NCBI GenBank assembly: GCA_965223155.1
Contig: CBDCVR010000014.1
Coordinates: forward strand, 416,001-480,000
Source: Candidatus Multivoradales bacterium
GTDB taxonomy: Bacteria; Acidobacteriota; Thermoanaerobaculia; Multivoradales; JAHEKO01
Reading direction: 5' to 3'
Length of the DNA: 64,000 nucleotides
In this document: in pieces, positions 7,626-23,680 of the stretch
How positions within the stretch are numbered: position 1 is the stretch's first letter
Layout: every line of letters starts with the position of its first letter
Notes under the pieces: model-generated
The model's database searches: none
Seen by the model: only the letters and a program-made list of their open reading frames with translations
Told to the model about the DNA's origin: nothing
Program-made: the position numbers and the translations under genes

Positions 7626-8108
7626 CTACTCCCCTGCCCGGAAGATCCAGCCCGGCGCCTTCTCGATGCTCTGGCGCAGGTGCAGGTTCAACTGTGCGGC
7701 GCCGTGTTGCACGTGGCGCAGGTTGTAGAGATGGAGCTCGCCGATGGTCAAGCCTAGCCGGTCGAAGCCGCAGGGTGACGCGGCATGCCGGTCGGTGATG
7801 TCGCCTACGGTGCTGCGACATTTCTCCCGACAATGCGCGAGATAGGCCAGCAACTCGTCCCGGCTGTACATACGCTCGGGCAGCACACCCTCGGGATCCA
7901 GCTCGCCCAGCGTGAAAGGGTGCGGAGGTTCGAAAGCGTCGGGCCTCTCGGACAGATAGCAGTCCAACCAGAAGAGCGTGTGATAGGCCAGGTACCAGAC
8001 CTCTTGGCGCCGCCAAACGTCGTCCGGGAACAGCTCGATAGCGGCCTTCAAGGCATCAATCGCAGCCCCGAACTGGCTCCAGAGAGTTCTGCCCCACTGG
8101 GTGGTCAT
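7626..8108 (-). CDS. DinB family protein
   Basis: WYLAYHTLFWLDCY and YNLRHVQHGAAQL metal-binding His pattern. Confidence 0.8.
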   Translation of the reverse strand: MTTQWGRTLWSQFGAAIDALKAAIELFPDDVWRRQEVWYLAYHTLFWLDCYLSERPDAFEPPHPFTLGELDPEGVLPERMYSRDELLAYLAHCREKCRSTVGDITDRHAASPCGFDRLGLTIGELHLYNLRHVQHGAAQLNLHLRQSIEKAPGWIFRAGE

Positions 8109-8171
8109 CCTATTCGCCGAAACTCCGTTCCATCCGTTGGATGCTGCCGCGATCGGGTGGGCGCGGACAGG

Positions 8172-8863: not shown

Positions 8864-9772
8864 GTGTCCGCCACCACCAACTCGCCCGCACCGGCCTTGC
8901 GCCATCTGGTCGCCTGCGCGGCCTGTCACCGCCAGTACGAAGCCGGCGGTCTGGAGCCGGGAGACAGGTTCCATTGCTCGTGCGGGCACGTGATCGAGGT
9001 CCAAACGCCCAGGCCGCACGAGTCGGCCGTCGTTCGCTGCTCCGCCTGCGGCGGTCCTCGCCTGGAGGGAGCCGCGAGCTGCCGCTTCTGCAATTCGGAC
9101 TTCACGCTGCACGAGCGCGACCTCGACACGATCTGTCCGGGTTGCGCGACCCGCATCAGCCGCCGAGCCCGCTTCTGCCATGCCTGTGCGCTGCCGATCG
9201 ACCCCCACCCAACCGGAGCCGAGCCTTCGGGCCAAGCCTGTCCCGCTTGCGCGGCGGACTCCGAGCTGGTCAGCCGGCCCCTCGGCGGCGAGATTCTGAC
9301 GGTTCTAGAATGTCCGCAGTGCGCCGGCCTCTGGCTGGGAACGGAGTCCTTTCGGCTGCTTGAGGATCGCGCCAAGGAACGAAGTCCTGGCTGGATGCCC
9401 GCTCCGCCGCCCGCCGCCGAATCGGCCGAAGCCACCGGAGGCACCGAAGGCCGTATGTACCGGCCCTGTCCGGCCTGCGGCAAGCTCATGCACCGAAGAA
9501 ACTACGGCAAGCGCAGCGGCACGATCTTGGACGTTTGCGCCGAACACGGCTTGTGGTTCGACGCCGGCGAGCTCGAGCACGTCCTGCGCTGGATTCGGGA
9601 CGGCGGCTTGGCGCGCTCTCAGCAGCGGGACGCCGAGGACGCCGCCCAGGCCGTACGCAAGGCCGCGACCGCCGGCCTGCCGCCGGTCACGCGGCCATCG
9701 GGCTCGGCCCTCGGAGGATTTCTGGAGCTGATCCTGGACTGGATCGCCCGAACCCGCCCCGGCTCGAGTTAG
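8864..9772 (+). CDS. Multi zinc-ribbon protein (zf-TFIIB-like domains)
   Basis: About 10 CxxC/CxC/CxxH knuckles; C..C.GLWL and DVC..HGLWFDAGEL motifs. Confidence 0.8.
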   Translation: MSATTNSPAPALRHLVACAACHRQYEAGGLEPGDRFHCSCGHVIEVQTPRPHESAVVRCSACGGPRLEGAASCRFCNSDFTLHERDLDTICPGCATRISRRARFCHACALPIDPHPTGAEPSGQACPACAADSELVSRPLGGEILTVLECPQCAGLWLGTESFRLLEDRAKERSPGWMPAPPPAAESAEATGGTEGRMYRPCPACGKLMHRRNYGKRSGTILDVCAEHGLWFDAGELEHVLRWIRDGGLARSQQRDAEDAAQAVRKAATAGLPPVTRPSGSALGGFLELILDWIARTRPGSS

Positions 9773-10446
9773 CCTTCCGCAGAAGCCGGGCTCTCCGCGA
9801 CTTCCTCGGCAGGAACCTCGTCAGCGGATTCCTGAGTGGCGCCGCCGTCTGCCGCGGAGCCTTTTTCGTCCTCGATCTCCTCTTCGAGCGGCCTCTGTTT
9901 CTCGGGAGGCAGGGGCGCCAGTACCATGATCATGCGCCTGGACTCGAGCTTGCTCCGGGATTCCACCACGCCCAGGCCCTCGACTTCCCTGGTCAGCTTG
10001 TCCAGGATCTCGGCACCCAGCTCCGGACGCCGGAGCTGCCGGTAGCGGAAGAACACCGTCACCTTGACCTTCTTGCCCTTGCGCAAGAACTGCTTGGCGC
10101 GGTCGGTCTTGCGCTCCATGTCGTGCTTGTCGATGTTGGGCCGGTACTTGACCTCTTTGACCTCGATGGTGTGGGTCTTCTTGCGAGCCTCGCGGGCCTG
10201 CTTCTCACGCTCGTACTTGAGCTTGCCGTAGTCCAGGATCCGGACCACGGGCGGATCGGCATTGGCGCCGACTTCGACGAGATCCAGCCCCGCTTCCTCG
10301 GCCTTGCGCCGAGCCTCTTCGACCGGCACCACGCCGATCTGCGTGCCATCTTGATCGATCAGTCGCACCGGGCTCTTGCGGATGGCATCGTTGACCCGTG
10401 TGCGATCCACGGGTCTGCGCGGTGGTCGATAAAATCTCCTAGGTAT
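9769..10446 (-). CDS. infC: Translation initiation factor IF-3, non-canonical ATA start
   Basis: RVNDAIR..VRLID, LDLVEV...PPVVRILDYGK, VKEVKYRPNIDKHD. In-frame ATA at 10446, 7 nt downstream of AAAGGAG. Confidence 0.93.
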   Translation of the reverse strand: MPRRFYRPPRRPVDRTRVNDAIRKSPVRLIDQDGTQIGVVPVEEARRKAEEAGLDLVEVGANADPPVVRILDYGKLKYEREKQAREARKKTHTIEVKEVKYRPNIDKHDMERKTDRAKQFLRKGKKVKVTVFFRYRQLRRPELGAEILDKLTREVEGLGVVESRSKLESRRMIMVLAPLPPEKQRPLEEEIEDEKGSAADGGATQESADEVPAEEVAESPASAEG

Positions 10447-10789
10447 TTTCGGGCTCCTTTCGGGCGCTCGGACGAACGGACGGGCTCAGGGTGCTCACGG
10501 AACCGGCTTCCTAACCGGACCGGGCACGGGCCCCGGCAGCCGGAGCGCGATGAAAACGGTTGCCGTCCTCGAGACGGCCGCTCACGATCGATAGTCGGCG
10601 ACTAGCTGCATGCGCCAGCTTCGTAGGCTCGAAGCGATCGTGTGGAAGAGTGCGTGGTAATGATGACGCTCGACTTGAAAACTCGCTGGAATGGGCGGCA
10701 AGCCACCGACAAGCTCGGCCTCTTGCACTGCCCGCAACACGGTGACGAAGCGTAGCACAAGAGACCGCTGTGCTAGCCTGCCGCACTTC

Positions 10790-11851
10790 ATGAAGCGTGC
10801 CGCCAGCGCCCTGCCGCCGATCCGCTTCGAGCCCGTCCTCAAGGACTATCTCTGGGGCGGTACCGCTCTGCGCGACCTTTTCGGCCGGGAGCTTCCGAGT
10901 GCGACCGCGGCCGAGAGCTGGGAGGTGTCGGATCACCCCCACGGCCCCACCCCGGTGCGCGAAGGCGAGCTTCAAGGGGCGACCCTGAATGAGCTCATCG
11001 CGGAGCACGGCACCGAGCTCCTGGGCACGCGCTACGTCGACGCGGCCGCGGCCGGGCGCTTCCCGCTCTTGATCAAGATCCTGGACGCGCGCCGCTGGCT
11101 GTCGGTCCAGGTCCATCCCGGAGACGCCTACGCCCGCGAGCGCGAGGGAGATTCCGGCAAGACCGAGATGTGGATCGTGCTCGACGCCGACCCGGAAGCC
11201 GAGATCATCCTGGGTTTTGCGGAAGCGCTCACCGCCGGCGAATTCAACGAAGCCGTCGCCGCCGATCGCCTGGACGAGGTTCTGCAGCGGCTGCCGGCCA
11301 GGGCCGGAGACGCCTTCTTCGTTCGCTCCGGCTTGATCCATGCGATCGGGCCGGGTCTGGTCATCGCCGAGATCCAGCAATCGAGCGACACCACCTACCG
11401 GGTCCACGACTGGGGCCGTCACGACCGGGACGGCCGGCCGCGCGAGCTCCACTTGCAGCAGGCTCGAGACGTGCTGGACTTCTCCGCCATCCGGCCGGCG
11501 GCCGTGTCTCCGGAGCCGCTCGACTTGCCAGGCGGCGAACTCCTGGTGGATTGTCCCGACTTCCGGGTCGAGCGATACCGCCTGGGCGCCTCGCCCGAAG
11601 ACGAGCGGGCGGTGCTTGCCCGCCGCTACGAGGGTCGCTGCGCCGGCGCCACCTTCGAGATCTGGGGAGTGCTGGACGGCTCCGCGACCCTCGAGTGGGA
11701 CGGCGGCCGGCTCGACCTGGAAGCGGTGGACTGGGTGCTGCTACCGGCGACTCTCGGCGCCTTCGCGATTTCGGCCGAAGGTTCGGACACCGAGGATCGC
11801 GACAGCCCCGCAACGCTGGTTCGCGTCCTCAAGCCCGACGAATCGGGCTAG
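10790..11851 (+). CDS. manA: Mannose-6-phosphate isomerase, class I
   Basis: LWGG, AESWEVSDH, FPLLIKILDA...LSVQVHP, KTEMW, IHAIG, EIQQSSDTTYR, RELH. Confidence 0.9.
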   Translation: MKRAASALPPIRFEPVLKDYLWGGTALRDLFGRELPSATAAESWEVSDHPHGPTPVREGELQGATLNELIAEHGTELLGTRYVDAAAAGRFPLLIKILDARRWLSVQVHPGDAYAREREGDSGKTEMWIVLDADPEAEIILGFAEALTAGEFNEAVAADRLDEVLQRLPARAGDAFFVRSGLIHAIGPGLVIAEIQQSSDTTYRVHDWGRHDRDGRPRELHLQQARDVLDFSAIRPAAVSPEPLDLPGGELLVDCPDFRVERYRLGASPEDERAVLARRYEGRCAGATFEIWGVLDGSATLEWDGGRLDLEAVDWVLLPATLGAFAISAEGSDTEDRDSPATLVRVLKPDESG

Positions 11852-11964: not shown

Positions 11965-12873
11965 GTGACCCAGCTGGCCGACGTGATTCTCTACTACCAT
12001 CGCCCTTCCTTCTTCTTGGACCCGGATTGGTCGCCGGTCCCAACCGGCAGGCGTTGCCGCTACACCGGAGACAAGGCGAGGTTCTTCGAGGCAAAAGCCG
12101 TCCTGTTCGACATCCCGACGCTGACGAGCGAGGAGACCGAGCACCTCGCCAAGATTCGGCTGGCCAAGCCCGAGGGACAGATCTGGGTCGCCTTCTCGCA
12201 AGAGAGCGACCAGTGCTTCCCGCTGCTGAACGACCCGGGTTTCATGGCCCTCTTCGACCTGGAGATGTCGTATCGGCAGACTGCCCAAGTCTGGACACCG
12301 TACGTCAACCAAGAGGTCGCGGCGAGAATCTCCTCCGCCCCGGTACTGCCCAAGCGCCATCTGTGTGCGGCCTTCATTTCCAGTCGAGTCAACCTGAGCC
12401 GGCGTCTCGAACTGCTGGAAGGGCTGATGCAGCACCTACCCATTCACTCGTTCGGCAGCCAACTGCAGAACTCCATCTTGGAAGAGGACCAGGGCAACCC
12501 CCAGTACTCGCAGGCCCGCTACCAGACCAAGCTCCGGACCCTCAGACGCTACCGATACACCATCGCCTTCGAAAACAGCTTGAGCGACGACTACGTCACC
12601 GAGAAGTTCTTCCACCCGCTCATGGCCGGCTCGATCCCCGTCTATCTCGGCGCGTCCAACGTAGCCGACTATGCGCCGGGGAAAGACGCCTTCATCAACG
12701 CAGCGAATTTTCCCCATCCCCGGGAACTCGCCGAGTTCCTACTGGAAGCCGAGGACGCCAAGTACCAGGAGTGGCGAAGCCGGCCCTTGGAGCAGTCCTT
12801 TCTCGACCTCGTGTCTCGAACCACCCAGGAGCCGTTCGACGAACTCTGCGATCTGGTGTTCGGCCGAAAGTAA
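11965..12873 (+). CDS. Glycosyltransferase family 10 (alpha-1,3-fucosyltransferase-like)
   Basis: alpha3-FucT motif YRYTIAFENSLSDDYVTEKFFHPLMAGSIPVYLG. Confidence 0.9.
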   Translation: MTQLADVILYYHRPSFFLDPDWSPVPTGRRCRYTGDKARFFEAKAVLFDIPTLTSEETEHLAKIRLAKPEGQIWVAFSQESDQCFPLLNDPGFMALFDLEMSYRQTAQVWTPYVNQEVAARISSAPVLPKRHLCAAFISSRVNLSRRLELLEGLMQHLPIHSFGSQLQNSILEEDQGNPQYSQARYQTKLRTLRRYRYTIAFENSLSDDYVTEKFFHPLMAGSIPVYLGASNVADYAPGKDAFINAANFPHPRELAEFLLEAEDAKYQEWRSRPLEQSFLDLVSRTTQEPFDELCDLVFGRK

Positions 12874-12917: not shown

Positions 12918-14030
12918 CTATCGGCCCGGCCTGTTGCCAGCGGCACCGGCCTCGGCCAGGACTCGCTTGGCCCGGATTTCAACATTACCCGGGTTCGCGG
13001 CTTCGGCCTTCCGCAACCAGGACAGAGCTCGGCTCCAAGCGCCTTCGACCAAGAAGGTAGCGCCGTAGAGACCCCAGGCAAATTCCCCAAATAGCCTCTT
13101 GTCGTACCCCAGGCCGTGAACGGCCAGGCGCGGGACCTCTTCCGCCAGGAGTTGGTCCAGGAAGAATCGAGCCGCCGTCTGCCGGCCTTCCTCGGAGGCC
13201 AGGCGCGCACCCCACCAAAGCAGCAGGGGATCGCAAGGCGCTCGGTCCCAGCCTTCCCGCCAAAGGTCCGCGGCATCCACCAGTCGCGGACCCTCGGCGG
13301 AGAAGTGCAGATCCAGGAGATCCCCGAAGAGCAAGGCGTCCCCAGCCCGAACCGGCCTTGCCCGCAGGGCCTCCAACCCGCGCCGCCAGGCCGTTTCGCC
13401 TTCGGAATAGGCACCCAGTCCGACTCTGGCCTCCCCCAACGCGTGCCAAAGATAGACGCGCTCGGGATCCAGCTCTACGGCCTGGAGCAGCATCGGCAGG
13501 TTGCGCTCGTGCTTGGCCCGCAGGTCCCCTTCGTACCCGAGGTGCTGGATCGCCAGCGGGACGGGACGACAGCCGAGCTCCCCCGCGGCCATAATCCGCT
13601 CGAGGTCCGGAACCACGGTCTCATGAATGGGACTTCGGAACCGAAGGTCGTCTCGATTGCGAAACAGTCGGAACTCGAGATACGGAGTGAGTCGACTGGA
13701 GGCGGAGAATTCCACCAGGCCGGCGATAAGCGCGCGGTCGGCGAGAACCGGAGCCAGCTCACCGCACCGAATCACCCGCTCATCGGCGTCGAGGTAGAGG
13801 ATCCAATCCTCGGCAGCCTCGTCCAAACCCAGGTTCCGCGGCTTGGAGAAGTCATTCCGCCAGGGCTCGTGCACGACCCGGGCCCCGTGCTCCGCCGCGA
13901 CCTCCACGGAGCGGTCCCGCGAACCGGTATCTACGACGACGATCTCGTTGACAAGCTCCGCAACGGAGCGCAGGCACGCGGCAAGGTGCGCCTCCTCATC
14001 GCGAACGATGAGGACGGCGGAGATCCCCAA
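12918..14030 (-). CDS. GT2 glycosyltransferase with C-terminal TPRs (SunS-like catalytic domain)
   Basis: ISAVLIVRDEE, VVDTGSRD, WRNDFSKPRN, WILYLDADE, IHE, IQHLGY, K.ERN, followed by TPR-like helices. Confidence 0.88.
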   Translation of the reverse strand: MGISAVLIVRDEEAHLAACLRSVAELVNEIVVVDTGSRDRSVEVAAEHGARVVHEPWRNDFSKPRNLGLDEAAEDWILYLDADERVIRCGELAPVLADRALIAGLVEFSASSRLTPYLEFRLFRNRDDLRFRSPIHETVVPDLERIMAAGELGCRPVPLAIQHLGYEGDLRAKHERNLPMLLQAVELDPERVYLWHALGEARVGLGAYSEGETAWRRGLEALRARPVRAGDALLFGDLLDLHFSAEGPRLVDAADLWREGWDRAPCDPLLLWWGARLASEEGRQTAARFFLDQLLAEEVPRLAVHGLGYDKRLFGEFAWGLYGATFLVEGAWSRALSWLRKAEAANPGNVEIRAKRVLAEAGAAGNRPGR

Positions 14031-14042: not shown

Positions 14043-14195
14043 CTAGGTCGTGTTCGGCTGCGCCGAAGCCGGTCGCGCCATCAAGCCCGACATCGTGAAG
14101 GAGGCCACGAGCGGGGCTACGAAACCGGCCCCAATCGCCTTGCGAATGAAACCGCGCCGCGACTCATCAATGGATTCGAGGATCTTCTCTTGCAT
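14043..14195 (-). CDS. Putative RiPP precursor, 50 aa: MQEKILESIDESRRGFIRKAIGAGFVAPLVASFTMSGLMARPASAQPNTT
   Basis: Translated by hand. RBS AAGGAGG 7 nt before the ATG, own promoter, twin-Arg motif SRRGFI, FxxPxV motif. Located downstream of the PqqD and kinase genes, 12 nt upstream of the GT2-TPR gene. Confidence 0.85.
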   Translation of the reverse strand: MQEKILESIDESRRGFIRKAIGAGFVAPLVASFTMSGLMARPASAQPNTT

Positions 14196-14255
14196 CGAAC
14201 TTCCTCCTTCTCCGGCCTGTCAGTCGGCACTCCGGGATATCCCTAGATTGAGCGG

Positions 14256-14285
14256 AGTATCGCAAACCGGTTTCGCGGCTGTCAA
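14256..14285 (-). promoter_or_regulatory. sigma70 promoter for the small peptide, with a palindrome in the spacer
   Basis: TTGACA (14285-14280), 18 nt, TG-c-GATACT (14261-14256). Palindrome AAACCGGTTT at 14264-14273. Confidence 0.7.
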
Positions 14286-14325: not shown

Positions 14326-15162
14326 CTAGCCCCGGGAACTATGGCTTCGGGAGGCATTCTCGAGAGAAGCAATCGCCTCGTCGATTCGGCCCAGAGTCAA
14401 CCGCCAGCCACCGCTTGCCCCCAGGAAGCTCGCCGCGGCCAGCAGGCTCTTTCGCGTCTCGCCCCAACGAAAGGAGTTCCTGAGGAGGTTCTCGATCAAG
14501 TGATGGGGCGGCGCGGGCTCCAACGAGCTCTTACCACCGTGATTCGGGGTGATCGATACCAGCCGATCGATCGGAGCTCGCTTGAGCCTCCACTGAGACC
14601 CAATCCTTCGGGGCGGGACACTCCAGACAACCTCGTCGCCGGAGCCCATGCGGGGCTGGCCGGCCAGAATCGCTCCGAGCCCGGGCACGACCTCGTCGCT
14701 TCCCTTCTTGAGTTGCAGACAACGTGGGAACGCAATCACCTCGCCCCCGGAAAAGAGTGCCAGCTCGTCGCCCTCGACCTCATGCCCCGCACTCAGCAAC
14801 GCGGCGGCCAGCGTCGACTTTCCGGCGTGCTTTGCGCCCAAGATCAGCAGGCGGCAGCCCGCCACCGTTGTCGTCACCCCGTGAAAGACGATCCAACCGG
14901 CCAGAGCCAGGCGCTCGATGGCTTGGCAGTAGGCCCGCTGGTAGAGAATGAAGAGTGCATCCCCGGCCGAAGGGGCGGAATCGCAAAGGTCTCCGGCGCG
15001 CAGGATCTCGAACGGGCCGTCGCCTCGCACCTCGAATCGCAGCAGCTTCTTGGGCTCAAGTGGCTGCTCGGCGACGGTTGCGGCATAGGCCAGGAGCGAC
15101 TCGAGCTCGCGGCTGGCGGTCTCGATCTCAACCTGGCAGCCGAGCAGTTGAAACGAAATCAA
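14326..15162 (-). CDS. HPr-kinase-related P-loop kinase (putative peptide kinase)
   Basis: FHG, Walker A GAKHAGKSTL, GDE, FPRCLQLK; overlaps the PqqD stop codon. Confidence 0.75.
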   Translation of the reverse strand: MISFQLLGCQVEIETASRELESLLAYAATVAEQPLEPKKLLRFEVRGDGPFEILRAGDLCDSAPSAGDALFILYQRAYCQAIERLALAGWIVFHGVTTTVAGCRLLILGAKHAGKSTLAAALLSAGHEVEGDELALFSGGEVIAFPRCLQLKKGSDEVVPGLGAILAGQPRMGSGDEVVWSVPPRRIGSQWRLKRAPIDRLVSITPNHGGKSSLEPAPPHHLIENLLRNSFRWGETRKSLLAAASFLGASGGWRLTLGRIDEAIASLENASRSHSSRG

Positions 15163-15458
15163 TCGGTTTCGGCCGGAACTTCGGACTCGACGGCGACCAG
15201 AATACTCTCGTCCATGAGCTGCTGGACTCCCGCACGGACCTCCTCGACCGGCGTCGCGTCCAACTGAAACAGGTCGGCGACGAGCTTAGGCAGGTCCGAG
15301 GTCGCGCGGGTTCCGTCGCACAGTTCGAAGAGGACCGCCGCGGTCTGGTTCAAGTGGTGAACCCGCTGCGTCTCCGGGAAGAAGATCACCAAGCCATCCT
15401 GGGCGTCATGCACCTCGATACCGTCGCAGCGGCGAAGAAACTCGGGGACGGCTGTCAT
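15159..15458 (-). CDS. PqqD family protein / RiPP recognition element (RRE)
   Basis: DGLVIF....VHHLNQTAAVLFELCDG.....L...VA..F.......V...V.QL....IL. Confidence 0.9.
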   Translation of the reverse strand: MTAVPEFLRRCDGIEVHDAQDGLVIFFPETQRVHHLNQTAAVLFELCDGTRATSDLPKLVADLFQLDATPVEEVRAGVQQLMDESILVAVESEVPAETD

Positions 15459-15471: not shown

Positions 15472-16758
15472 CTAGCACCCAGGCAAGGTGGTTCCCGCTC
15501 GGGCGGCAGCCACCACGGCGGCCAGCTTTTCGCTCACGACCGAGCGCTCGTGGTGGGCTCGAACCCAGCGAAGCGCTCGCTCCGCCTGACGCCGAGCCCC
15601 GTCGCCGCCGGCGATCAGCTCACCGGCGGCGCGCGCCAGGTCCTCGCTGGTAGCGCCGACCCGCGCAAACCGCCGGCCCGCCGGTCCGAGCCCAGCCGAG
15701 CCCTCGGGAGTGGTCACCACGGGAACACCCCAGGCGAAGGCCTCGAGAATCTTGACGTGACTCCCGCCGCCTGCTCGGGTGGGCACTACCGTCGCCGAAG
15801 CCCGTCGGTAGAAGGGAGCGAGATCAGCTACCCAGCCATGCGTCGAGACGCCAGGCGTTCGCGCCAACCGCTCGAGAGCTGCGCGCGGGCCCTTCCCCAC
15901 CAGGTCCACTTGGGTTTCCGGATGGTCCGCGCGAACCATCGGCAAGACAGCGTGGACGAGCCGCTCAGCCGCGTCCAGGTTTGGAAGGTAGTGGAAGTTG
16001 CCGAGCAGAAGCAGATTCTTACCACCCGGCGCACCCGGGTTCTGACTGTCGGCCGGTGGTATCGCGACCGCGTTTTCGATGGCTTCGACCGACTCCAGCC
16101 CGTGTCGGCTTGCGAGGCTCAGCGCGTCCCGTTCGCTAGCGGCAAGGACGCGATCGAACCACGGCAGCACCGCCGAGCCGAAATGTAGATAGGCTGCAGC
16201 GTCCGCGTCCAAGGACCCGGCAAGATCGTCTTCCGAGCGGTCTCTCGAGATGGCTGCAAGGCTCCGCAGGGTCGCGACGTCGTCGTCGTCGGCATCCAAG
16301 ATCCACACCGACGGCCCAGAATGCCGCTGCCGATCGGCCGCCGTGAACCCATCCAGCCCGACCAGCATGCCCGCGAGGTACAGCCTCAACACGTAGAGCG
16401 TGTCGAACCGGCGACCCAGCCGCTCGTCAATGGCGGCGCCCAGCTCCGGTGTGGCGCCTCTCGCCAACTCCGGCAGGGCGCCACAGCGTTCCAACAGCTC
16501 ACGGCTCGCCGGCCGCTCGAGCCAGGCGCGCACCGCTTCTCTGCCGGTCATGGGCTCGAACATCTCGACCCGATCGGCATATTCGGACAGCCAAGACGAG
16601 TCGAACCGATCCCGCCCGGGCTCGGCGACCGGGACGATACCGACCGTCAGACGGTGGGAGCGTGCCAGAGCCACCACGGCCAGAGCCGCCCGCATCGCCA
16701 ATCCGTTGCCGGAGAGGGCCGGGGTGATCGGGGTAAGCAGCAGCCCGCGCGGTGCTAT
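15472..16758 (-). CDS. GT4 glycosyltransferase
   Basis: GNFHYLPNLDA, VPTRAGGGSHVKILEAFAWGVPVVTT. The reading frame extends upstream of the track start (LLTPITPALSGNGLAMRA) to an ATA at 16758 preceded by GGAGG. Confidence 0.85.
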   Translation of the reverse strand: MAPRGLLLTPITPALSGNGLAMRAALAVVALARSHRLTVGIVPVAEPGRDRFDSSWLSEYADRVEMFEPMTGREAVRAWLERPASRELLERCGALPELARGATPELGAAIDERLGRRFDTLYVLRLYLAGMLVGLDGFTAADRQRHSGPSVWILDADDDDVATLRSLAAISRDRSEDDLAGSLDADAAAYLHFGSAVLPWFDRVLAASERDALSLASRHGLESVEAIENAVAIPPADSQNPGAPGGKNLLLLGNFHYLPNLDAAERLVHAVLPMVRADHPETQVDLVGKGPRAALERLARTPGVSTHGWVADLAPFYRRASATVVPTRAGGGSHVKILEAFAWGVPVVTTPEGSAGLGPAGRRFARVGATSEDLARAAGELIAGGDGARRQAERALRWVRAHHERSVVSEKLAAVVAAARAGTTLPGC

Positions 16759-16787
16759 TCTTTGCCTCCTCTCCGAGCCCCGGAACC

Positions 16788-17654
16788 GTGGTCAGAATTC
16801 CTCGCCGTGCGCACTTCGTCTTTGGATTGAAGCGATCTCGGTCCCCGTTCCACTTCCTCCATTATGTTGCCATCGAATCCTGCCGGCAGGTGTTGCGACC
16901 GAACGAGATCTTCTTTCATTACCATCACCTGCCCTTCGGCGAGTTCTGGGACCTGGTTCGTCCCCATCTACACTTGCACAGGGTCCCTCTGGTCGATGAG
17001 GTCCTGGAAACAAACTACGACGAGCGGCTGGTGCCACCCGAGTATCGATACGCCCACCACGCAGATTTCGTCCGCTTGGACGCCTTGATCGAGCACGGCG
17101 GGGTTTACGCCGACATCGATACGGTCTTCGTCAACCCGTTCCCTGAGTCTCTATTCGAGGGGTCTTTCGTGATCGGCCGGGAGCGGCCGGTCCCGGACGA
17201 ACGCACCGGTGAGCTCAAGCCGTCGTTGTGCAATGCCCTGCTGATGGCCGAACCGGGCAGCAAGTTCGCGATCGAATGGCGACGCCGCATGGCCGGCGCT
17301 CTCAACGGCACCTGGAACAACCACGCATGCTTCTTGCCGGAGCGGCTGAGTCGCGAAATGCCTGGCGAGTTGGACGTCGAGCCCGAGGAATCCTTCTTCC
17401 CCGTGCCCTGCACGCAGGAGGGCCTCGAGCGCTTGCTCGAGGGCGGCTGGATCGAACTCGACCATAGCTACTCCGTCCATCTGTGGAGCCATGTCTGGTG
17501 GGATGCCGAGCGCCTGGACTTCAGCCCTCGGCACAGCGGAGACTTCACGTACCAGGCCGTGCGTGAAGGCGGCGGCGGGAGTGCGCTCGAGCGCTTGGCG
17601 CACGCCTACCTTCCGGACCTGGAGGTAGACGACCTGGGACCATCCGTCAGATGA
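16788..17654 (+). CDS. DXD-type glycosyltransferase (GT32/Gly_transf_sug-like)
   Basis: IPRRAHFVFGL, AHHADFVRLDALIEHGGVYADIDTV, LCNALLMAEPGS.F, HLW. Confidence 0.85.
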   Translation: MVRIPRRAHFVFGLKRSRSPFHFLHYVAIESCRQVLRPNEIFFHYHHLPFGEFWDLVRPHLHLHRVPLVDEVLETNYDERLVPPEYRYAHHADFVRLDALIEHGGVYADIDTVFVNPFPESLFEGSFVIGRERPVPDERTGELKPSLCNALLMAEPGSKFAIEWRRRMAGALNGTWNNHACFLPERLSREMPGELDVEPEESFFPVPCTQEGLERLLEGGWIELDHSYSVHLWSHVWWDAERLDFSPRHSGDFTYQAVREGGGGSALERLAHAYLPDLEVDDLGPSVR

Positions 17655-18859
17655 CGGACGCCTTCGGGCTCAAGCTCGTGACGACGACGCCCGGGGGAGG
17701 GTACGGCGATGCCGCCCTCGAATACCTTCGCGGCCTGACCGATCTGGGAATTCCGGTCACCTGGCAGGTAGTGCGGGACGGGCATTGGGGGGCCCCGGCG
17801 AGACGAGTCGACTTGCCGTTCGACCTTCGGCGGAACTCCGCCCGGCTCGCATCGCTCTTCGACCGTTCTATTCCCCACGACACCTTCTTGCTTTGTATCC
17901 CTCCGCCGGCCTGGCATCTACGTTGGCTCCAGCAGGAGGAGCACACGACGCCCTTTGCTGGCGCCACCTGGGAGGCGGATCGCCTGCCGGCGAGTTGGCC
18001 GCCAGTGCTCAACCACTTCAGCACCGTCGTCGTACCTTCCGAGTTCAACCGCTCGGTGTTCGTCGCCAGTGGCGTGCGAGTTCCCGTCGAAGTCGTCCCC
18101 TATTGCGCCCGCGAGGTCCAGCCCGTGCCGGGAGGCCCACCCTGGGGCAGGGTCGCGGACGACGACTTCGTCTTCTACACCCTGGGTTCCTGGACCGCCC
18201 GCAAGGCTATCGAGGAAACGATTCGCGCCTACCTCGGAACGTTCACCGGCGACGATAGGGTCGCGCTCATCGTCAAGACGGGGGCCATCGACTGGATCGC
18301 GATCAAAGGCATGACCGTGGAGGAGAGAACCGAAGGGCCACCCCACCTGGGCACGAGTTGGTGGCAGCTCGCCCAGATCGTGGGCGAGTACGAGAATCCG
18401 GCCAAGATTCACCTCGTCGCCGACAGGTTGCCTCTACGAGAAATCGATCGTCTTCATACCCGGGGGGACTGCTTTGTCTCCTTAACACGCGGCGAGGGTT
18501 GGGGCCTAGGACCCTTCGACGCCGGTCTTTTCGGCAATCCGTCGATCGTGACCGGATGGGGTGGGCAGCTCGACTTCCTGGGGAGCGACTACCCGTTTCT
18601 CGTTGACTACGAGCTCGAATCGACGGCCGACTCTCCCGCGAACGGTTACCTCGATCCACCGCGTCAGATCCGCTGGGCGAAGCCGGACGTCGGGCAGGCC
18701 AGCCGGCTCATGCGTCGGGTCTTCGACGAGCGCCGGCAGGCACGGGAGCTGGGCGCCGAGCTCGGCCGGCGGCTCCGGTCCCGCTACCGGCGGCAGACCG
18801 TCTGCCGCCGCTTGGCCGAGGTGATGAATCTCGCCGTCAGACAACCGGAGGCCCGGTGA
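17651..18859 (+). CDS. GT4 glycosyltransferase
   Basis: WEAD, VVVPSEFN, W..RK, DCFVSLTRGEGWGLGPFDA...G.PSIVTGWGG..DF. Confidence 0.88.
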   Translation: MTDAFGLKLVTTTPGGGYGDAALEYLRGLTDLGIPVTWQVVRDGHWGAPARRVDLPFDLRRNSARLASLFDRSIPHDTFLLCIPPPAWHLRWLQQEEHTTPFAGATWEADRLPASWPPVLNHFSTVVVPSEFNRSVFVASGVRVPVEVVPYCAREVQPVPGGPPWGRVADDDFVFYTLGSWTARKAIEETIRAYLGTFTGDDRVALIVKTGAIDWIAIKGMTVEERTEGPPHLGTSWWQLAQIVGEYENPAKIHLVADRLPLREIDRLHTRGDCFVSLTRGEGWGLGPFDAGLFGNPSIVTGWGGQLDFLGSDYPFLVDYELESTADSPANGYLDPPRQIRWAKPDVGQASRLMRRVFDERRQARELGAELGRRLRSRYRRQTVCRRLAEVMNLAVRQPEAR

Positions 18860-19650
18860 AGACCGTTCTGGTCAATTACGCAACGGGCCCGTTCGCCGGA
18901 TATAGGGCGCTGCTGACTCTGACCGGGCAGCGGGCCGGCTGCGACGATTGCTTGGAGTTCGGCCCCCAGGACCTGGACGCGGAGTTTCGTCGCAGGCACC
19001 GCGAGACCCTCGCCGCTCGCCGCGGCGCCGGCTACTTCCTATGGAAGCCCTACATCTTGGTCCGGGCCTTGCAACGCGTGGCACCCGGAGACGTCCTTTT
19101 CTATTGCGACGCCGGGATTCATTGCGTTCGACCGATCCAGCCGCTCCTCGACCTCCTCGAGGGCGGCTCTTCGGACCTCGTCATTCTGGACGGAGGCTTC
19201 CGCGAGTCACAATACACGAAACGGGATGCGTTCCTCCTGATGGGCTGTGACTCGAGCGAATTCGTCGAGACTCCCCAGAGCTTCGCCGGCGCGTTCTTGT
19301 TGCGCAAGACAGAGTGGGCCGAACGGTTTGCGCGCGAGTTTCTCGCCTATGCCTGCGATGACCGAGTCTTGACCGACCGAGCCAATGTGCTGGGAGAAGA
19401 CGACTACCCGGATTTCATCGAACATCGTCACGATCAATCGATTCTGAGCCTGCTGGCCAAGCGGTACGGCATCTCGTTCACCCCCAATCCGTTTCTGGGC
19501 CAGGGCCTAGTCGAAAGAACCGGCCCCCGCATTCTGAACCACACGCGCCAGGCCTACCCGCTCAAGGACGTGGTTCTCTACTTGCTGGCGCGCGGTGCGT
19601 TGCGGATCGAAGACCTCCCGAGCCTCGAGCGAGCGGTCGGCCATGAGTGA
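18856..19650 (+). CDS. Conserved HRHDQS-motif protein, probable GT-A-like glycosyltransferase
   Basis: RGAGYFLWKPYIL, LFYCDAG, YTKRDAF, HRHDQSILSLL; translationally coupled to the upstream GTs. Confidence 0.65.
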   Translation: MKTVLVNYATGPFAGYRALLTLTGQRAGCDDCLEFGPQDLDAEFRRRHRETLAARRGAGYFLWKPYILVRALQRVAPGDVLFYCDAGIHCVRPIQPLLDLLEGGSSDLVILDGGFRESQYTKRDAFLLMGCDSSEFVETPQSFAGAFLLRKTEWAERFAREFLAYACDDRVLTDRANVLGEDDYPDFIEHRHDQSILSLLAKRYGISFTPNPFLGQGLVERTGPRILNHTRQAYPLKDVVLYLLARGALRIEDLPSLERAVGHE

Positions 19651-19743: not shown

Positions 19744-20952
19744 ATGCCCCGCCTCCTGAACCAAGACTCGAACGCCGCGGTCGAGTGGCTGGGGCGCGCC
19801 TGCGGACGGTTCTTGCAGGCGCGCGAAGGGGCGGCGCCACCCCTGGCTCTTGACGTTGGGGTCGACGCCCTGCAACCTCTAGCACCCGCGCACGGCCTCG
19901 AGCCGCTGCTGCATGGCTTGGTCGCGACCGGCGGCATCGCGCGCGAGACCGTTCCGGCCTCGCTCCGGGAGCGCTGGTTGGCGGACTATTGTCGAACGAC
20001 GGTGGCGAACCGGCGCGCGCTCTCGGAGCTGGAGCGCTTGCTGGACAGTTGCCGCCGGCAGTCCGTCGAGATACTCGTATTCAAGGGACTGGCACACGTC
20101 GCGGGGGTCTACCGGGATCCCGGCTTGCGGCCGATGGTGGACGTGGATCTGCTGTGCCGGCCAGCCGCTCTAGCGGCACTCGAACGGGCATTCGTCGAAG
20201 AGGGTTATGAGCCCGTCGACTGGTCGATCCATCACGCGACCTTCGCGACAAAGGCAGGTCTCCTACGGTTTGAGGTCCATCAGAGCCTCTGGGATTTGAT
20301 CGCAGAAGGTGGCCGTTTTCTCGATGAGGTCTGGCGGTCCCAGACGGTGGCCGAGGTGGACGGTTTTCGTTTCTGTGTTCCTTCGGTCGAGGTCAGCGTA
20401 GTCCTAGACACCGCCCATGCCCTGCAGCACGACCTCGGCCAGGGATTGCGGCAAGCCGTGGATCTCGTCGGCTCCCTGGCGACACCGGGCCTTTCGGTCC
20501 CCCGGCTGGACGCGTTGCTCGGCGAGACAGACCTAAAGCCGGAATTCGTCCGAGTCGCGGGTCTCTATCGCCAGTTTCTGGGCGACGGACTCTTCCCAGA
20601 GGCGCTCGCGATACCCGAGCCGCATCTCTCCGATCGAGAATTCGCGCAACAACGTTGGTCCAGCCTGGCCTTGGACTCCGGGGTTCGTTTCCTGGGAGAG
20701 CTCCGCGCCCGGACGGGCCCCGCCGGCAAGCTGAGACACCTGTGGCGTTTGCTGGTTCGGCCCACCGGCCTCGGCGGCATGGGCGGAATGGGCGGCAGGA
20801 AGATCAGGAATCTCGGCCGCTGGCGCCAGCACCTGGCCAACCTCGCGAAACGCGCTTGGCGCAAGAGCCTGGGCCGGTCTCGGAGCCGGAGCGCCCTGGT
20901 AGGCTCCTGGAAGGCCCAGGTCTACCGCCGACGCGGCCACTCTGGCAGATGA
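19744..20952 (+). CDS. Nucleotidyltransferase family protein (NTP_transf_5-like)
   Basis: VFKG.....VY.DPGLRPMVDVDLL, FEVH. Confidence 0.82.
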   Translation: MPRLLNQDSNAAVEWLGRACGRFLQAREGAAPPLALDVGVDALQPLAPAHGLEPLLHGLVATGGIARETVPASLRERWLADYCRTTVANRRALSELERLLDSCRRQSVEILVFKGLAHVAGVYRDPGLRPMVDVDLLCRPAALAALERAFVEEGYEPVDWSIHHATFATKAGLLRFEVHQSLWDLIAEGGRFLDEVWRSQTVAEVDGFRFCVPSVEVSVVLDTAHALQHDLGQGLRQAVDLVGSLATPGLSVPRLDALLGETDLKPEFVRVAGLYRQFLGDGLFPEALAIPEPHLSDREFAQQRWSSLALDSGVRFLGELRARTGPAGKLRHLWRLLVRPTGLGGMGGMGGRKIRNLGRWRQHLANLAKRAWRKSLGRSRSRSALVGSWKAQVYRRRGHSGR

Positions 20953-21174
20953 TTCTGAGAGCCTCTCCGGAAGACCTGGGGGCCGGCGGTGGCGGCCTCC
21001 GGCGCCCATTCAGAGAGCCATCCAATCGGCGGCCGCGGCACGCCGCTCGCCCCCCATGCCAGACCGAATGCGGGGGCCTACTGGGGTTCCCTTTGGACCG
21101 GCACTTCGATATATTCCGCGCCGGCCGCGTTCCGCGGTCACACCCCCAAACATCAAGCAAGCGAGTCACGAACT

Positions 21175-22887
21175 ATGTCGAATGTTGCGACGCAGGACTT
21201 ACGTCCGCTTCTCGTCTCCCCCGATCAGGCCGAAGAGCTGAAATCCGAGGCAATACATCTCAAGTCCTGGGATCTGAACTTTCAGCAGATCTGGGACAGC
21301 GAGCTGCTCCTGAACGGAGCCTTCTCCCCTCTGGCCGGATACCACACCGAGGCCGACTATCGAGGCGTGCTGGACGGCATGCGCACCGCCGACGGAGCGC
21401 TCTGGCCGATGCCGATCACCCTCGACGTCACCGAAGAGTTCGCCGAAGGGCTGACCCAGGGCGAGCGCGTTGCCCTTCGCCACCCCGAAGGCATGGTCCT
21501 GGCGATCCTGACGGTCTCCGACATCTGGCGCCCGGACGCAGACGAGGAAGCCTCCAAGGTCTTCGGCACCACGAACCCGGACCATCCCGGGGTCTTTCAG
21601 CTCAAGCACGAGACCCATCCCGTGTACCTGGGCGGACGGCTCGAAGGCGTCGAGCTGCCTCCGCACCACACCTACCAGCGCCACCGGCACACGCCGGAGC
21701 AACTGCGGGCCGAGTTCGATCGGCTGGGCTGGAAGCGCATCGTGGCTTTCCAGACCCGGAATCCGATGCACCGCGCGCACGTCGAGCTGGTACAGCGCGC
21801 CGCGCTCGAAAACGACGCGAAGATCCTGATCCATCCGGTCGTCGGACGCACCAGCCCGGGCGACGTGGACTACTTTTCACGGGTGCGCTGCTACGAGGCG
21901 GTGGTCGACCAGCTGCCGCCGCAGGTTGCCAAGCTCAGCCTCTTGCCGCTGGCGATGCGCATGGGCGGTCCGCGCGAGGCACTCTGGCACGCCCTCATCC
22001 GGCGCAACTACGGCTGCACGCATTTCATCGTCGGACGCGACCACGCCGGTCCACGGGACCGGGACGGCAACTCGTTCTACGGCCCCTACGACGCCCAGGA
22101 GCTCGTCAAGCAACATGCCGACGAGACCGGCATCGAGCTGGTTCCCTTCCAGGAGGTCGTCTACTGCCAGGAGCGGGGCGAGTACATGGCCCGCTCGGAG
22201 GTCCCCGAGGACGCCACGATTCTGAATCTCTCGGGCACCGAGTTGCGCCGCCGGCTTCGCGAGGGCGCCGACATTCCCTCCTGGTTCTCGTTTCCGGAGG
22301 TCATCACCTCGTTGCGCCGCCGCTATCCGCCGCGCTCGCGCCAGGGCTACACCATCTTCTTTACCGGCCTTTCAGGGTCCGGCAAGTCCACGGTCGCCCA
22401 GATCCTGATCGCCAAGCTGATGGAGATCGACGATCGGCCGGTGACACTCCTGGACGGCGACATCGTGCGCAAGAACTTGTCGAGCGAGCTGGGCTTTTCG
22501 AAAGAGCACCGCGACCTCAACATCCAGCGCATCGGCTTCGTGGCCAGCGAGATCACCAAGAACCGAGGCGCCGCGGTATGCGCTCCAATCGCGCCCTACG
22601 AGAAGACTCGGCGCCAGGTCCGAGACCTGATCGAGCTCCACGGGGGCTTCGTCGAGGTCCACGTCTCGACACCGCTCGAGGTCTGTGAAGATCGCGACCG
22701 CAAGGGTCTGTACGCCAAGGCACGGGCCGGACTGATCAAGGAATTCACCGGCATCGATGACCCATACGAGGAGCCGGACACTCCCGAGGTCGTGATCGAC
22801 ACCTCGCTCCTGACCGCCGAACGCGCGGCTCTCAAGGTCGTCGACTTCCTGCGCCGGGAAGGCTTCCTCGAGCGCTCCCGCTCCTGA
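21175..22887 (+). CDS. sat: Bifunctional sulfate adenylyltransferase / adenylylsulfate kinase
   Basis: AFQTRNPMHRAH, HFIVGRDHAG; APS-kinase domain FFTGLSGSGKST, LDGD.VR, RDRKGLYAKARAG. Confidence 0.96.
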   Translation: MSNVATQDLRPLLVSPDQAEELKSEAIHLKSWDLNFQQIWDSELLLNGAFSPLAGYHTEADYRGVLDGMRTADGALWPMPITLDVTEEFAEGLTQGERVALRHPEGMVLAILTVSDIWRPDADEEASKVFGTTNPDHPGVFQLKHETHPVYLGGRLEGVELPPHHTYQRHRHTPEQLRAEFDRLGWKRIVAFQTRNPMHRAHVELVQRAALENDAKILIHPVVGRTSPGDVDYFSRVRCYEAVVDQLPPQVAKLSLLPLAMRMGGPREALWHALIRRNYGCTHFIVGRDHAGPRDRDGNSFYGPYDAQELVKQHADETGIELVPFQEVVYCQERGEYMARSEVPEDATILNLSGTELRRRLREGADIPSWFSFPEVITSLRRRYPPRSRQGYTIFFTGLSGSGKSTVAQILIAKLMEIDDRPVTLLDGDIVRKNLSSELGFSKEHRDLNIQRIGFVASEITKNRGAAVCAPIAPYEKTRRQVRDLIELHGGFVEVHVSTPLEVCEDRDRKGLYAKARAGLIKEFTGIDDPYEEPDTPEVVIDTSLLTAERAALKVVDFLRREGFLERSRS

Positions 22888-22900: not shown

Positions 22901-23680
22901 ATGTACGAAGAGATCCTCGAGCGGATCGCGGAGTCGCTGGAAGCGGCACGCGAGGTCCTGGAGCAGTTCACGCCGGGCCGGATCGAAGCTCGGCACAAGG
23001 CCGGCGGTGATCCGGTCACTGAAGCCGACCTGGCGGTCAACGCCGTTCTGGAGCGCATCCTGCCCCGCTCCGGCGAGGCCTGGCTGTCCGAGGAAACCAA
23101 GGACGACCCGTCACGCCTCGAAGCCGAGCGCGTCTGGATCGTGGATCCGATCGACGGCACCAAGGAGTTTGTAACCGGGATTCCGGAGTGGTGCGTGTCG
23201 GTCGGCTACGTAGTCGGCGGCGAGGCTGTTGCCGGCGGCATTCTGAGTCCCTCGACCGACCAGTTGATCCTGGGCTCCCTGGAGTCGGGAGTGACCCTCA
23301 ACGGCGAACCGGTCCGGCCCCGGCCGACGAAAGACCTGGCCGACGCCGTGGTCCTCGCCAGCCGCAGCGAAATCCGGCGCGGCGAATGGGAGCAGTACGC
23401 GGAGAGCGCGTTCACCTTGCAGCCGATGGGCTCGGTGGCTTTCAAGATGGCCCTGGTCGCGGCCGGCGAGGTTGACGCCACCTGGACCCTGGTGCCCAAG
23501 AACGAATGGGACGTGGCGGCTTCCACGGCCCTGGTTCACGCCGCCGGCGGCAAGGTCTTCGTGCCGGGTGCCGGAGCGCCCAGCTTCAACCGGGCCGATC
23601 TGAAGTTTCCCGGCCTCGCCGCACTCGGGCCCGGCACCGAAGAGCTCTTCGGGGACGAGTCCTTCACTCTGCGCCGCTAG
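22901..23680 (+). CDS. cysQ: 3'(2'),5'-bisphosphate nucleotidase
   Basis: PVTEAD, LSEE, WIVDPIDGTKEF, ASRS, MGSVAFK, EWDVAA; adjacent to sat/cysC. Confidence 0.88.
   Translation: MYEEILERIAESLEAAREVLEQFTPGRIEARHKAGGDPVTEADLAVNAVLERILPRSGEAWLSEETKDDPSRLEAERVWIVDPIDGTKEFVTGIPEWCVSVGYVVGGEAVAGGILSPSTDQLILGSLESGVTLNGEPVRPRPTKDLADAVVLASRSEIRRGEWEQYAESAFTLQPMGSVAFKMALVAAGEVDATWTLVPKNEWDVAASTALVHAAGGKVFVPGAGAPSFNRADLKFPGLAALGPGTEELFGDESFTLRR

Follow-up and report, generated by a model that had tools for sequence, protein, structure and literature searches.

A conserved twin-arginine-motif peptide gene beside PqqD, HprK-like kinase and glycosyltransferase genes: a candidate precursor of an exported glycopeptide

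What use would a bacterium make of a 50-residue peptide that resembles an export signal over its first 45 residues and leaves five residues as cargo? The question is raised by an open reading frame (ORF) at 14043..14195 on the minus strand of a 64,000-nucleotide stretch of a Candidatus Multivoradales bacterium genome (Acidobacteriota; assembly GCA_965223155.1, contig CBDCVR010000014.1, positions 416,001 to 480,000), hereafter referred to as the window. An earlier note, made from the letters alone, had proposed that the leader of this peptide serves both as a handle for a recognition element (RRE) of peptides that are ribosomally synthesized and modified post-translationally (RiPPs) and as a signal for twin-arginine translocation (Tat), by which a bulky cytoplasmic modification would cross the membrane. 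In the present analysis the gene is real and conserved, its motifs are family-wide, the gene order around it is conserved and the neighbouring enzymes belong to the families given below. With moderate confidence, we read the ORF from its sequence and context as a gene whose product would be the RiPP-like precursor of an exported glycopeptide or phosphoglycopeptide, in other words of a small sugar-decorated peptide that would be of a hitherto undescribed kind.

The peptide gene and its family

The ORF comprises 50 codons and encodes MQEKILESIDESRRGFIRKAIGAGFVAPLVASFTMSGLMARPASAQPNTT. The gene and the putative signals upstream of it are as follows.

14043..14195, minus strand: putative peptide precursor gene, with an acidic N-region, SRRGFIRK, an uncharged stretch containing F25xxP28 and SFTMSGLMA, RPASA and the tail QPNTT
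14200..14209, minus strand: Shine-Dalgarno stretch AAGGAGGAAG, with the core GGAGG 7 nt upstream of the peptide ATG
14256..14285, minus strand: promoter-like site TTGACA-18-GATACT with TG, in the 130-nt gap between a kinase gene and the peptide gene

The features that the earlier note had picked out (SRRGFIR, a hydrophobic region, a basic residue before A-S-A, QPNTT and FVAPLV) were all found in the ORF. The twin-arginine motif reads S12-R13-R14-G-F16-I-R-K19 and is followed by an uncharged stretch of 21 residues (A20..A40), in which F25-V-A-P28-L-V30 is present, and by R41-P42-A43-S44-A45; beyond A-x-A the tail consists of the five residues Q46-P-N48-T-T50 before the stop. There is no Cys in the peptide and no acidic residue in the tail. 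The span of 14043-14209 that had been assigned to the peptide does contain the ORF, but the ORF itself spans 14043..14195, and with its end coordinate 14209 the longer span takes in the Shine-Dalgarno stretch as well. The promoter-like site, which is a consensus match only, was found once against a mean of 0.1 in 50 shuffles, and no unusual RNA structure was seen in the 130-nt gap upstream of the gene (z = 0.42).

A word-indexed search returned six homologues of 56-58 residues with 63-65% identity, and by pattern scans the gene was located in an Acidobacteriota metagenome-assembled genome (MAG; locus L005), a Halieaceae MAG (L006) and an uncultured gammaproteobacterium (L007). A scan of metagenomes gave seven further loci, of which only L015 and L016 hold family members; the hits L017-L021 were dropped as long proteins with ordinary RR signals. 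The five orthologues read from DNA (those of L005, L006, L007, L015 and L016) have 54, 54, 69, 55 and about 71-79 residues, and their tails past A-x-A read QAPNQSP, QPNMS, QSNSSITPPPP..., QSNQSP and QSNTSTPPPP.... Together with the six from the word search, this makes 11 orthologues of 54-79 residues from Acidobacteriota, gammaproteobacterial MAGs and metagenomes; elsewhere in the window genome no paralogue of the peptide was found (next best match E 0.26).

Over an ungapped block of 35 codons, synonymous differences outnumbered non-synonymous ones in 10 out of 10 pairs; between the window and L006, for instance, seven codons are identical, 19 differ synonymously and nine non-synonymously. The nine residues of SFTMSGLMA are invariant, with variable third codon positions. 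The homologues, the synonymous excess and this invariant stretch with its varying third positions indicate, at the level of sequence, that the peptide ORF is a real gene, translated and under purifying selection, and the possibility left by the earlier note that the ORF might turn out to be unconserved has thus been settled in favour of conservation.

When 1.84 billion representative proteins were searched with a profile built from 10 sequences, 358 of them, mostly of 50-110 residues, matched at E <= 1e-3 and 14 at E <= 1e-10; the best 150 were inspected. Overall 156 proteins were considered (P0001-P0157 minus the aberrant P0010), 137 of which fit a simple leader pattern. The third-best profile match, P0010, has 2136 residues, of which 20 stretches match the profile at positions 4-22 only; repeats or low complexity probably account for this match, and all counts leave it out. 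The peptide and 149 of its relatives have no Pfam or NCBIfam family of their own, and the cluster members sampled were all without a name or called 'hypothetical protein'.

The members of the family share one plan, in which an acidic region ending in (V/I)-D-x-S leads into R-R-x-F-(L/I/V)-(R/K)-K, then into G-x-A-F-x-x-P-(V/L/I)-x-x-S-F-(S/T)-M-x-G-L and A-x-A, and finally, about three residues beyond A-x-A, into an N-x-S/T sequon. Among the 65 aligned members of 70 residues or less, R14, P28 and F33 occur in all, as does L/I/V/M at position 17, and position 13 is occupied by R in 54 members and by K in the other 11; F16 is found in 47, R/K at position 18 in 58 and F/Y25 in 58. Position 32 is S/T in 64, and position 36 is S/T in 36 and D/E in 17. 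Ala stands at -3 in 55 and at -1 in 59, with Pro frequent at -4; in the tail, Gln at +1 is found in 35, Asn48 in 62 and Ser/Thr at position 50 in 56. The alignment of homologues thus bore out RR, FxxP and the terminal N-x-T/S as conserved, since the twin-arginine motif, A-x-A, [FY]xxPx[VIL] and N-x-T/S are all family-wide.

The first sequon lies 12-18 residues past the invariant 'SF' in 78 of the 137 leader-pattern proteins, and a sequon at 40 residues or less is present in 93 of them, compared with 46.5 +/- 5.0 (maximum 64) in 500 shuffles. Of the 360 Asn residues in 150 tails, 157 fall within N-x-[ST], where 63 would be expected; Q takes the middle place in 44 cases and M in 19, and Pro in 2 against 13 expected. 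Some members (P0102, P0106, P0073, P0075, P0144) repeat sequon units such as PNQT, GNMT or NTT up to seven times, and in two others (P0082, P0110) the C-terminus consists of a PEP-CTERM-like motif, a hydrophobic stretch and a basic tail. Behind the same N-terminal module, longer members have DUF11, CARDB, CHRD, PPC or pentapeptide domains; DUF11, CARDB, CHRD and PPC domains are mostly known from secreted or surface proteins.

High-GC DNA yields many spurious ORFs, and 36 of the 137 leader-pattern proteins have at least 130 residues, so that it had to be weighed whether the ORF arose by chance or is what truncation has left of a longer Tat-exported protein. The latter had been named in the earlier note as what could undo its reading, and it is refuted by the lengths: the 12 close relatives, window peptide included, all have 50-79 residues, with stops checked in DNA for the window and five others, and 52 of the 137 family proteins are shorter than 70 residues. 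Against chance and remnant alike stand the 11 orthologues of 54-79 residues that stop at the same place where DNA was read, the synonymous excess in all 10 codon pairs, the strong ribosome-binding site and a gene order kept in six of six loci (see below). We regard this explanation as already refuted by the results, with next to no probability left.

The conserved gene neighbourhood

The genes around the peptide gene in the window are the following.

15472..16701, minus strand: GT4-type glycosyltransferase (GT, glycosyltransferase family), here GT4a; PF13692 6.7e-21; kept in 4 close loci besides the window
15159..15458, minus strand: PqqD-family protein (RRE); PF05402 4.9e-8, above cut-off
14326..15162, minus strand: HprK-like P-loop kinase; TIGR04352 1.4e-9 and PF07475 1.3e-4, both sub-cut-off; start overlaps the PqqD stop by 4 nt
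12918..14030, minus strand: GT2 glycosyltransferase with tetratricopeptide repeats (TPR), here GT2+TPR; PF00535 3.2e-17 and TIGR04195 SunS 5.8e-14; starts 12 nt beyond the peptide stop
16752..17654, plus strand: divergent DXD-motif glycosyltransferase; PF04488 4.1e-8; 54-56% identity in L005, L006, L007 and L015
17651..18859, plus strand: GT4-like protein, here GT4b; window copy without Pfam match; 41-46% identity in 4 loci
18856..19650, plus strand: 264-residue protein without Pfam family; window only, no blastp match in the other loci
19744..20952, plus strand: NTP_transf_5 nucleotidyltransferase; PF14907 5.1e-35; in all 5 close loci
6492-7556, plus strand: GDP-mannose 4,6-dehydratase; flanks the module, window genome only
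10691..11851, plus strand: mannose-6-phosphate isomerase; accessory, window only
11965..12873, plus strand: GT10 fucosyltransferase; accessory, window only
20989..22887, plus strand: ATP sulfurylase/adenylylsulfate (APS) kinase; accessory, window only
22901..23680, plus strand: CysQ-like phosphatase; accessory, window only

Gene context was available for six loci, namely the window, L005, L006, L007, L015 and L034 of genome G009. On the minus strand of the window the order is GT4a - PqqD - HprK-like kinase - 130-nt gap - peptide - 12-nt gap - GT2+TPR, and a blastp comparison of the locus ORFs found PqqD - HprK-like kinase - peptide - GT2+TPR in six out of six loci from two phyla. In all four close loci with enough flank (L005, L006, L007, L015), one strand carries GT4b and the DXD transferase and the opposite strand carries GT4a - PqqD - kinase - peptide - GT2+TPR. 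GT4a, the DXD transferase, GT4b and NTP_transf_5 are present in all five close loci; NTP_transf_5 lies directly behind GT2+TPR in L006, L007 and L015, and in L005 it forms a fusion with GT4b. At the distant orthologue locus of G009 only PqqD - kinase - peptide - GT2+TPR are kept. The interpretation given in the earlier note was supported in part, by a PqqD gene two genes upstream of the peptide in all six loci and by glycosyltransferases of typically cytoplasmic families, which fit modification in the cytoplasm followed by Tat export; the HprK-like kinase and the NTP_transf_5 gene beside the peptide are points that it had missed. Among the conserved-module genes scanned (window, L005, L006, L007 and L015), no protease or transporter was matched by Pfam.

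Some details concern single loci. The GT4b homologues of L006 and L007 match PF00534 weakly. In L007, the kinase and GT2+TPR genes are each split into two overlapping ORFs (9067-9913 and 10221-11346), which could be frameshifts or assembly errors. Downstream of the G009 peptide gene in L034 there is a radical SAM/DUF3463 gene (7038-8261). The 264-residue protein of the window is possibly GT-A-like, a lead from an Atlas feature search that returned unnamed clusters and, more distantly, GT-A-like transferases. The accessory genes of the window hint, by their annotated families, at a fucosylated and perhaps sulfated glycan in this organism.

In the reverse direction, 114 of 401 Acidobacteriota genomes have a GT2 match at E <= 1e-20, but a GT2+TPR gene at orthologue level is found only in the window genome (G000, 7e-180) and in G009 (9.8e-165), the next best being at 6.2e-56. 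Both of these genes adjoin a peptide gene, and in the flanks of about 1.5 kb around the 13 next-best GT2 loci no PqqD, kinase or peptide match was found. Searched directly, the peptide profile matched 12 of 401 genomes of the window's phylum at E <= 1e-3, the two that were inspected, G000 and G009, being convincing and the other 10 matches lying at E 3.4e-5 to 9.7e-4 in open frames of 54-979 residues. Among 401 genomes around G401 it matched three (the centre itself, the G009 genome and G614), and among 401 Pseudomonadota genomes one, the centre itself. Because matches are so few in these three scans, the system is rare in species-representative genomes.

The match in G614 (L042, contig C108) differs in architecture: a gene at 2807-3475 on the minus strand has a PqqD domain fused before an RR-leader-like VSRRDVIRK...LPVV..SF, followed by a Cys-rich tail, and an HprK-like gene lies next to it (1924-2997, minus strand). 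It is a fused variant of the same logic.

As to the enzymes, the nearest solved relatives of GT2+TPR are GmaR (2.4e-18), SunS (6.2e-13) and the ThuS-type chain 7msk (2.2e-10); the SunS model TIGR04195 gave 51.8 bits against an equivalog cut-off of 350, which makes the protein related to SunS and not a member. In the kinase, the motifs G..GK[ST]TL and GDE are invariant in six homologues, and the predicted model (predicted local distance difference test, pLDDT, 92.2) matched PEP carboxykinases (PEPCK) and HprK/P in a fold search, with no lasso-peptide kinase structure among the fold matches listed. A sequence comparison of the kinase with solved structures gave nothing useful (RsgA, E 0.012), and its L006 homologue has a sub-threshold ABC_tran P-loop match (E 0.0061, 17.6 bits against a cut-off of 25). 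A homologue search with PqqD returned the query itself only. GT4a resembles glycosyltransferases of PEP-CTERM systems; because no exosortase was found in the window genome, which is 98.66% complete, a PEP-CTERM link does not apply to the window copy.

The window genome has about five further HprK-like / PqqD / NTP_transf_5 loci (C14:350715-356559, C13:850926-853769, C15:886431-889306, C14:968127-970715 and C13:966900-969218), none with a peptide paralogue. In one of them NTP_transf_5 and the kinase share a single frame of 775 residues, and two of the PqqD frames have a common C-terminal extension (...FTDM..LL.LDP...). Farther along the window, an ORF of 922 residues at 24931-27699 on the plus strand has coding-like GC content at third codon positions and no Pfam match at E <= 1e-5, and a thiamine pyrophosphate (TPP) riboswitch (32275-32374, plus strand; RF00059, 63.9 bits) lies directly upstream of ThiC (32384-34213); an Rfam scan of the window found nothing else.

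A possible route of modification and export

As we infer them, PqqD binding, the modified residue, Tat export, cleavage and the function of the product would come together as follows. The N-terminal 45 residues would act as a twin-arginine type signal peptide, whose conserved [FY]xxPx[VIL]..SF.M.GL stretch would double as a handle for the PqqD-family RRE, and PqqD would hold the precursor during modification in the cytoplasm. The Q-x-N-x-[ST] tail would there receive a glycan or phosphoglycan from the HprK-like kinase, the GmaR/SunS-like GT2+TPR, NTP_transf_5 and three further glycosyltransferases. Tat, which can pass bulky folded cargo, would then export the product, and signal peptidase I would cut past A-x-A, leaving a glycan-bearing peptide of five residues (QPNTT in the window) in the periplasm. 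The general Tat machinery and signal peptidase would in this way replace the dedicated protease and transporter that the cluster lacks. The model fits the locus because the module holds no dedicated protease or exporter and the organism no periplasmic oligosaccharyltransferase; modification in the cytoplasm followed by Tat export fits because the glycosyltransferases of the cluster are of typically cytoplasmic families, TatC is present in the genome (1.4e-66) and STT3 was not found in it.

Which residue would be modified can be argued in two ways. Asn is the most conserved residue of the tail and Pro is depleted at x, the latter being the classic rule of N-glycosylation. For a hydroxyl or thiol speak the nearest relatives of GT2+TPR and the precedent for the kinase, and the G009 variant has no Asn. 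Because the nearest relatives of GT2+TPR are O- and S-glycosyltransferases (GmaR, SunS), a Thr/Ser hydroxyl is, by analogy, at least as likely a target as Asn, and because the G009 orthologue without Asn keeps the four-gene core, Asn would not be indispensable. A fuller version of the proposal, which we place on the unlikely side, is that of a new RiPP class, in which the Tat signal is the RRE leader, GT2+TPR N-glycosylates the sequon Asn, the kinase and nucleotidyltransferase phosphoglycosylate the adjacent Thr/Ser, Tat exports a peptide-primed oligosaccharide and PqqD, like a Tat-proofreading chaperone, holds the signal until the glycan is finished. If this were true, GT2+TPR would be the first GT2-type protein N-glycosyltransferase.

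Several observations weigh against the precursor reading, and they are given here with the alternatives that they favour. Gene context is known for the six loci only, compared with about 150 other family proteins; the G009 peptide (G009:C142, 9709-9894, minus strand) ends in ...GAQVPHGS and has no Asn; and a basic residue precedes A-x-A in 13 of the 65 short members only. The kinase and PqqD remain below the curated cut-offs of HprK_rel_A (37.4 bits against 200) and PqqD_rel_X (17.1 against 35). Binding of the leader by the PqqD RRE has weak support from complex prediction: with a 6-row alignment for PqqD and a 65-row alignment for the peptide, the predicted complex scored 0.52 against 0.02 for the best of three controls, with at least 90% of contacts agreeing between runs and a partner pLDDT of at least 68. 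Of 80 solved complexes 58 pass the mark applied, and of 110 mismatched pairs 2 do so; among the passes with a score of 0.60 or below there are only seven of the 80 solved complexes, but both of the mismatches. Since RRE-leader complexes of related families have already been solved, the pass may reflect likeness only.

The Tat signal itself is also debatable. A Tat motif has the form Z-R-R-x-hydrophobic-hydrophobic near the N-terminus, commonly S/T-R-R-x-F-L-K, and the window peptide has both this motif (SRRGFIRK) and an uncharged region followed by A-x-A. With TIGR02811, however, it scores 13.6 bits (E 0.066) where the cut-off is 48.45, and at E <= 0.1 it matches neither TIGR01409 nor PF10518. 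Among the 150 inspected proteins, weak Tat-model matches are found for TIGR02811 in 52 and, at E <= 0.1, for TIGR01409 in 24 and PF10518 in nine; the best TIGR02811 match of the family is at 1.7e-6 and all are below the cut-off. That the window peptide reaches no curated Tat model would suit a route in which Sec or YidC exports the peptide and the sequon becomes N-glycosylated outside the cytoplasm, as would the sequon itself, because N-x-S/T with Pro depleted at x is a hallmark of oligosaccharyltransferase sites. In spite of this we find such a route very improbable, as no STT3-family enzyme was found in the window genome, the RR pair is kept in 54 of 65 members (KR in the rest) within a full S-R-R-x-F-L-K-like motif, and the neighbouring transferases match GT2, GT4 and DXD-type families, which are typically soluble and cytoplasmic.

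The uncharged region also counts against a plain signal peptide: it is far more conserved than in an ordinary one, with SFTMSGLMA invariant across two phyla, and may therefore have another role or be itself the modified part. One such role would be that of an uncleaved signal-anchor, N-in/C-out in the inner membrane, with the tail glycan as primer or carrier for a surface or periplasmic polysaccharide, which takes up the carrier or anchor idea of the earlier note. A 21-residue uncharged stretch preceded by RRxFxRK, conserved as highly as would be expected of a functional membrane segment, is in line with an anchor, and so are the polysaccharide-like cluster, with five to six glycosyltransferases and, in the window, genes for the supply of GDP-fucose and 3'-phosphoadenosine 5'-phosphosulfate (PAPS), and the likeness of GT4a to PEP-CTERM-system glycosyltransferases. 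The G614 variant, with PqqD fused before the RR stretch, appears from its domain order to suit a membrane anchor better than an N-terminal Tat signal. Cleavage by signal peptidase is nevertheless argued for by Ala at -3 (55/65) and -1 (59/65) and the frequent Pro at -4, D/E at position 36 (17/65) shortens the hydrophobic span to about 16 residues, and the conserved module showed no gene for a polymerase or a flippase and none of Wzx/Wzy type, so that we hold the anchor to be unlikely.

The other possibility keeps the precursor role and moves the modification into SF[ST]M[SD]GL, for instance as phosphorylation of Ser36 by the HprK-like kinase, leaving the tail as recognition site or spacer. Position 36, with S/T in 36 and D/E in 17 of the 65 members, has the pattern of a phospho-site with acidic replacement, so that the conserved stretch may itself be modified; S32 is S/T in 64 of 65, and the stretch is the most conserved part of the peptide. 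A modification at this place would, however, leave no lasting product if the leader is cut off and discarded, the sequon statistics and the repeated PNQT units point to the tail, and a C-terminal Ser is the target of those HPr-kinase homologues that are known from RiPP clusters. We give this variant a low probability.

About equally improbable in our judgement is that the peptide is no substrate at all and serves, as a small subunit in the membrane or as an adaptor, to tether or regulate a GT2+TPR / kinase complex, for example with the TPR binding the tail. The tight linkage to the GT2+TPR gene, 12 nt apart, is consistent with such a subunit, and TPR domains are established binders of short peptide tails; but an adaptor would leave unexplained the PqqD/RRE partner, the enrichment of sequons with Pro depleted at x, the sequon repeats of longer members and the recurrence of one N-terminal module ahead of C-terminal domains of different kinds.

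Relation to known systems and significance

The closest parallel to the proposed precursor system is found in lasso peptides. In lasso clusters HPr-kinase homologues phosphorylate the hydroxyl of the C-terminal Ser of the precursor, the nucleotidyltransferase of pseudomycoidin adds one or two hexoses to the Ser phosphate, and the same clusters contain a PqqD-type B1 protein, according to the part of PMC8498205 consulted. Going by that part, a PqqD-family RRE, an HPr-kinase homologue, an NTP_transf-type enzyme and a small precursor gene are common to our module and to the phosphorylated or phosphoglycosylated lasso peptides (paeninodin, pseudomycoidin). The last two residues of the window peptide are Thr-Thr, and in four of its 11 close relatives the sequence closes with N-M-S or N-Q-S-P. 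Unlike in those clusters, no lasso cyclase (Asn-synthetase-like), transglutaminase-like B2 protease or ABC exporter was seen among the conserved genes scanned in the five close loci, the leader of the window peptide is Tat-like, and GT2+TPR and three further glycosyltransferases belong to the core. A lasso core consists of a ring of 7-9 residues closed on Asp/Glu plus a tail, and the window tail, with five residues and none of them acidic, is too short for the fold.

With the glycocins (sublancin/SunS, thurandacin/ThuS) and the flagellin O-GlcNAc transferase GmaR the module shares a GT2 domain with TPR-type helical repeats. GmaR, SunS and ThuS are cytoplasmic enzymes that attach sugar to Ser/Thr or Cys residues of proteins or peptides, and in a glycocin the core is a helix-loop-helix with Cys and the ABC exporter bears a peptidase domain. 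The window peptide, in contrast, has no Cys, double-glycine leader or helix-loop-helix core, and among the module genes scanned there is neither a C39-peptidase ABC exporter nor a thiol-disulfide oxidoreductase, an RRE and a kinase being present instead. Cytoplasmic N-glycosyltransferases of the NGT / HMW1C type transfer sugar at N-x-S/T, a rule that the sequon of the peptide family, with Pro depleted at x, would fit; however, the neighbours scanned include no GT41-type enzyme, the candidate is a GT2, and we know of no GT2 enzyme with Asn-glycosylating activity.

MNIO (DUF692) enzymes modify Cys residues of DUF2282/bufferin-type precursors, and neither DUF692 nor DUF2063 was seen among the neighbours scanned in the five close loci. 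These precursors resemble ours in having a general export signal and an RRE-containing partner, and differ in that the signal here has a twin-arginine motif and the neighbours are a kinase and glycosyltransferases. In the part of PMC12710340 consulted, the DUF2282 precursors have Sec signal peptides and are paired with DUF2063-type RREs.

Two NCBIfam systems are also similar. The 'formate dehydrogenase region TAT target' proteins (TIGR02811) are small (model length 66) and contain little beyond a Tat signal, but here the neighbours are glycosyltransferases with no formate dehydrogenase context, and SF.M.GL and the N-x-S/T tail are specific to the peptide family. The HPr-rel-A system unites the same three kinds of protein (TIGR04352 HprK_rel_A, TIGR04353 PqqD_rel_X and NTP_transf_5), although the window kinase and PqqD fall below both curated cut-offs; no substrate peptide has, to our knowledge, been described for it. 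Membership in the lasso, glycocin, HPr-rel-A and TIGR02811 groups was rejected, as their defining features were looked for and are missing here. By analogy, the system would work most like the tailoring branch of the phosphorylated or phosphoglycosylated lasso peptides combined with a glycosyltransferase of the glycocin/GmaR type. No description of a natural RiPP leader that is a Tat signal, or of this gene set, was found in the literature searched, which comprised parts of PMC8498205, PMC7470986 and PMC12710340 among others and did not extend to supplements such as Figs S6-S7 of RRE-Finder on novel RRE clusters.

RiPP precursors are normally exported by dedicated transporters once a dedicated protease has removed the leader. 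If the precursor reading is true, both jobs are handed over to the general Tat pathway and signal peptidase, which would be a new layout for peptide natural products and a natural case of Tat carrying cargo glycosylated in the cytoplasm. The reading makes two questions testable, namely whether a GT2+TPR enzyme glycosylates Asn and whether an RRE can proofread a Tat signal. A tag of 45 residues with a sequon of three might direct the glycosylation and export of other cargo, and members of the family already bear the tag on varied domains. Orphan PqqD / HprK-like / NTP_transf_5 systems are common in environmental bacteria, and for one branch of them the peptide would supply a candidate substrate. 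Judged by its sequences and gene context, this is a conserved and hitherto unannotated family of putative precursors in a distinctive biosynthetic module, with its place among the RRE-dependent modified peptides.

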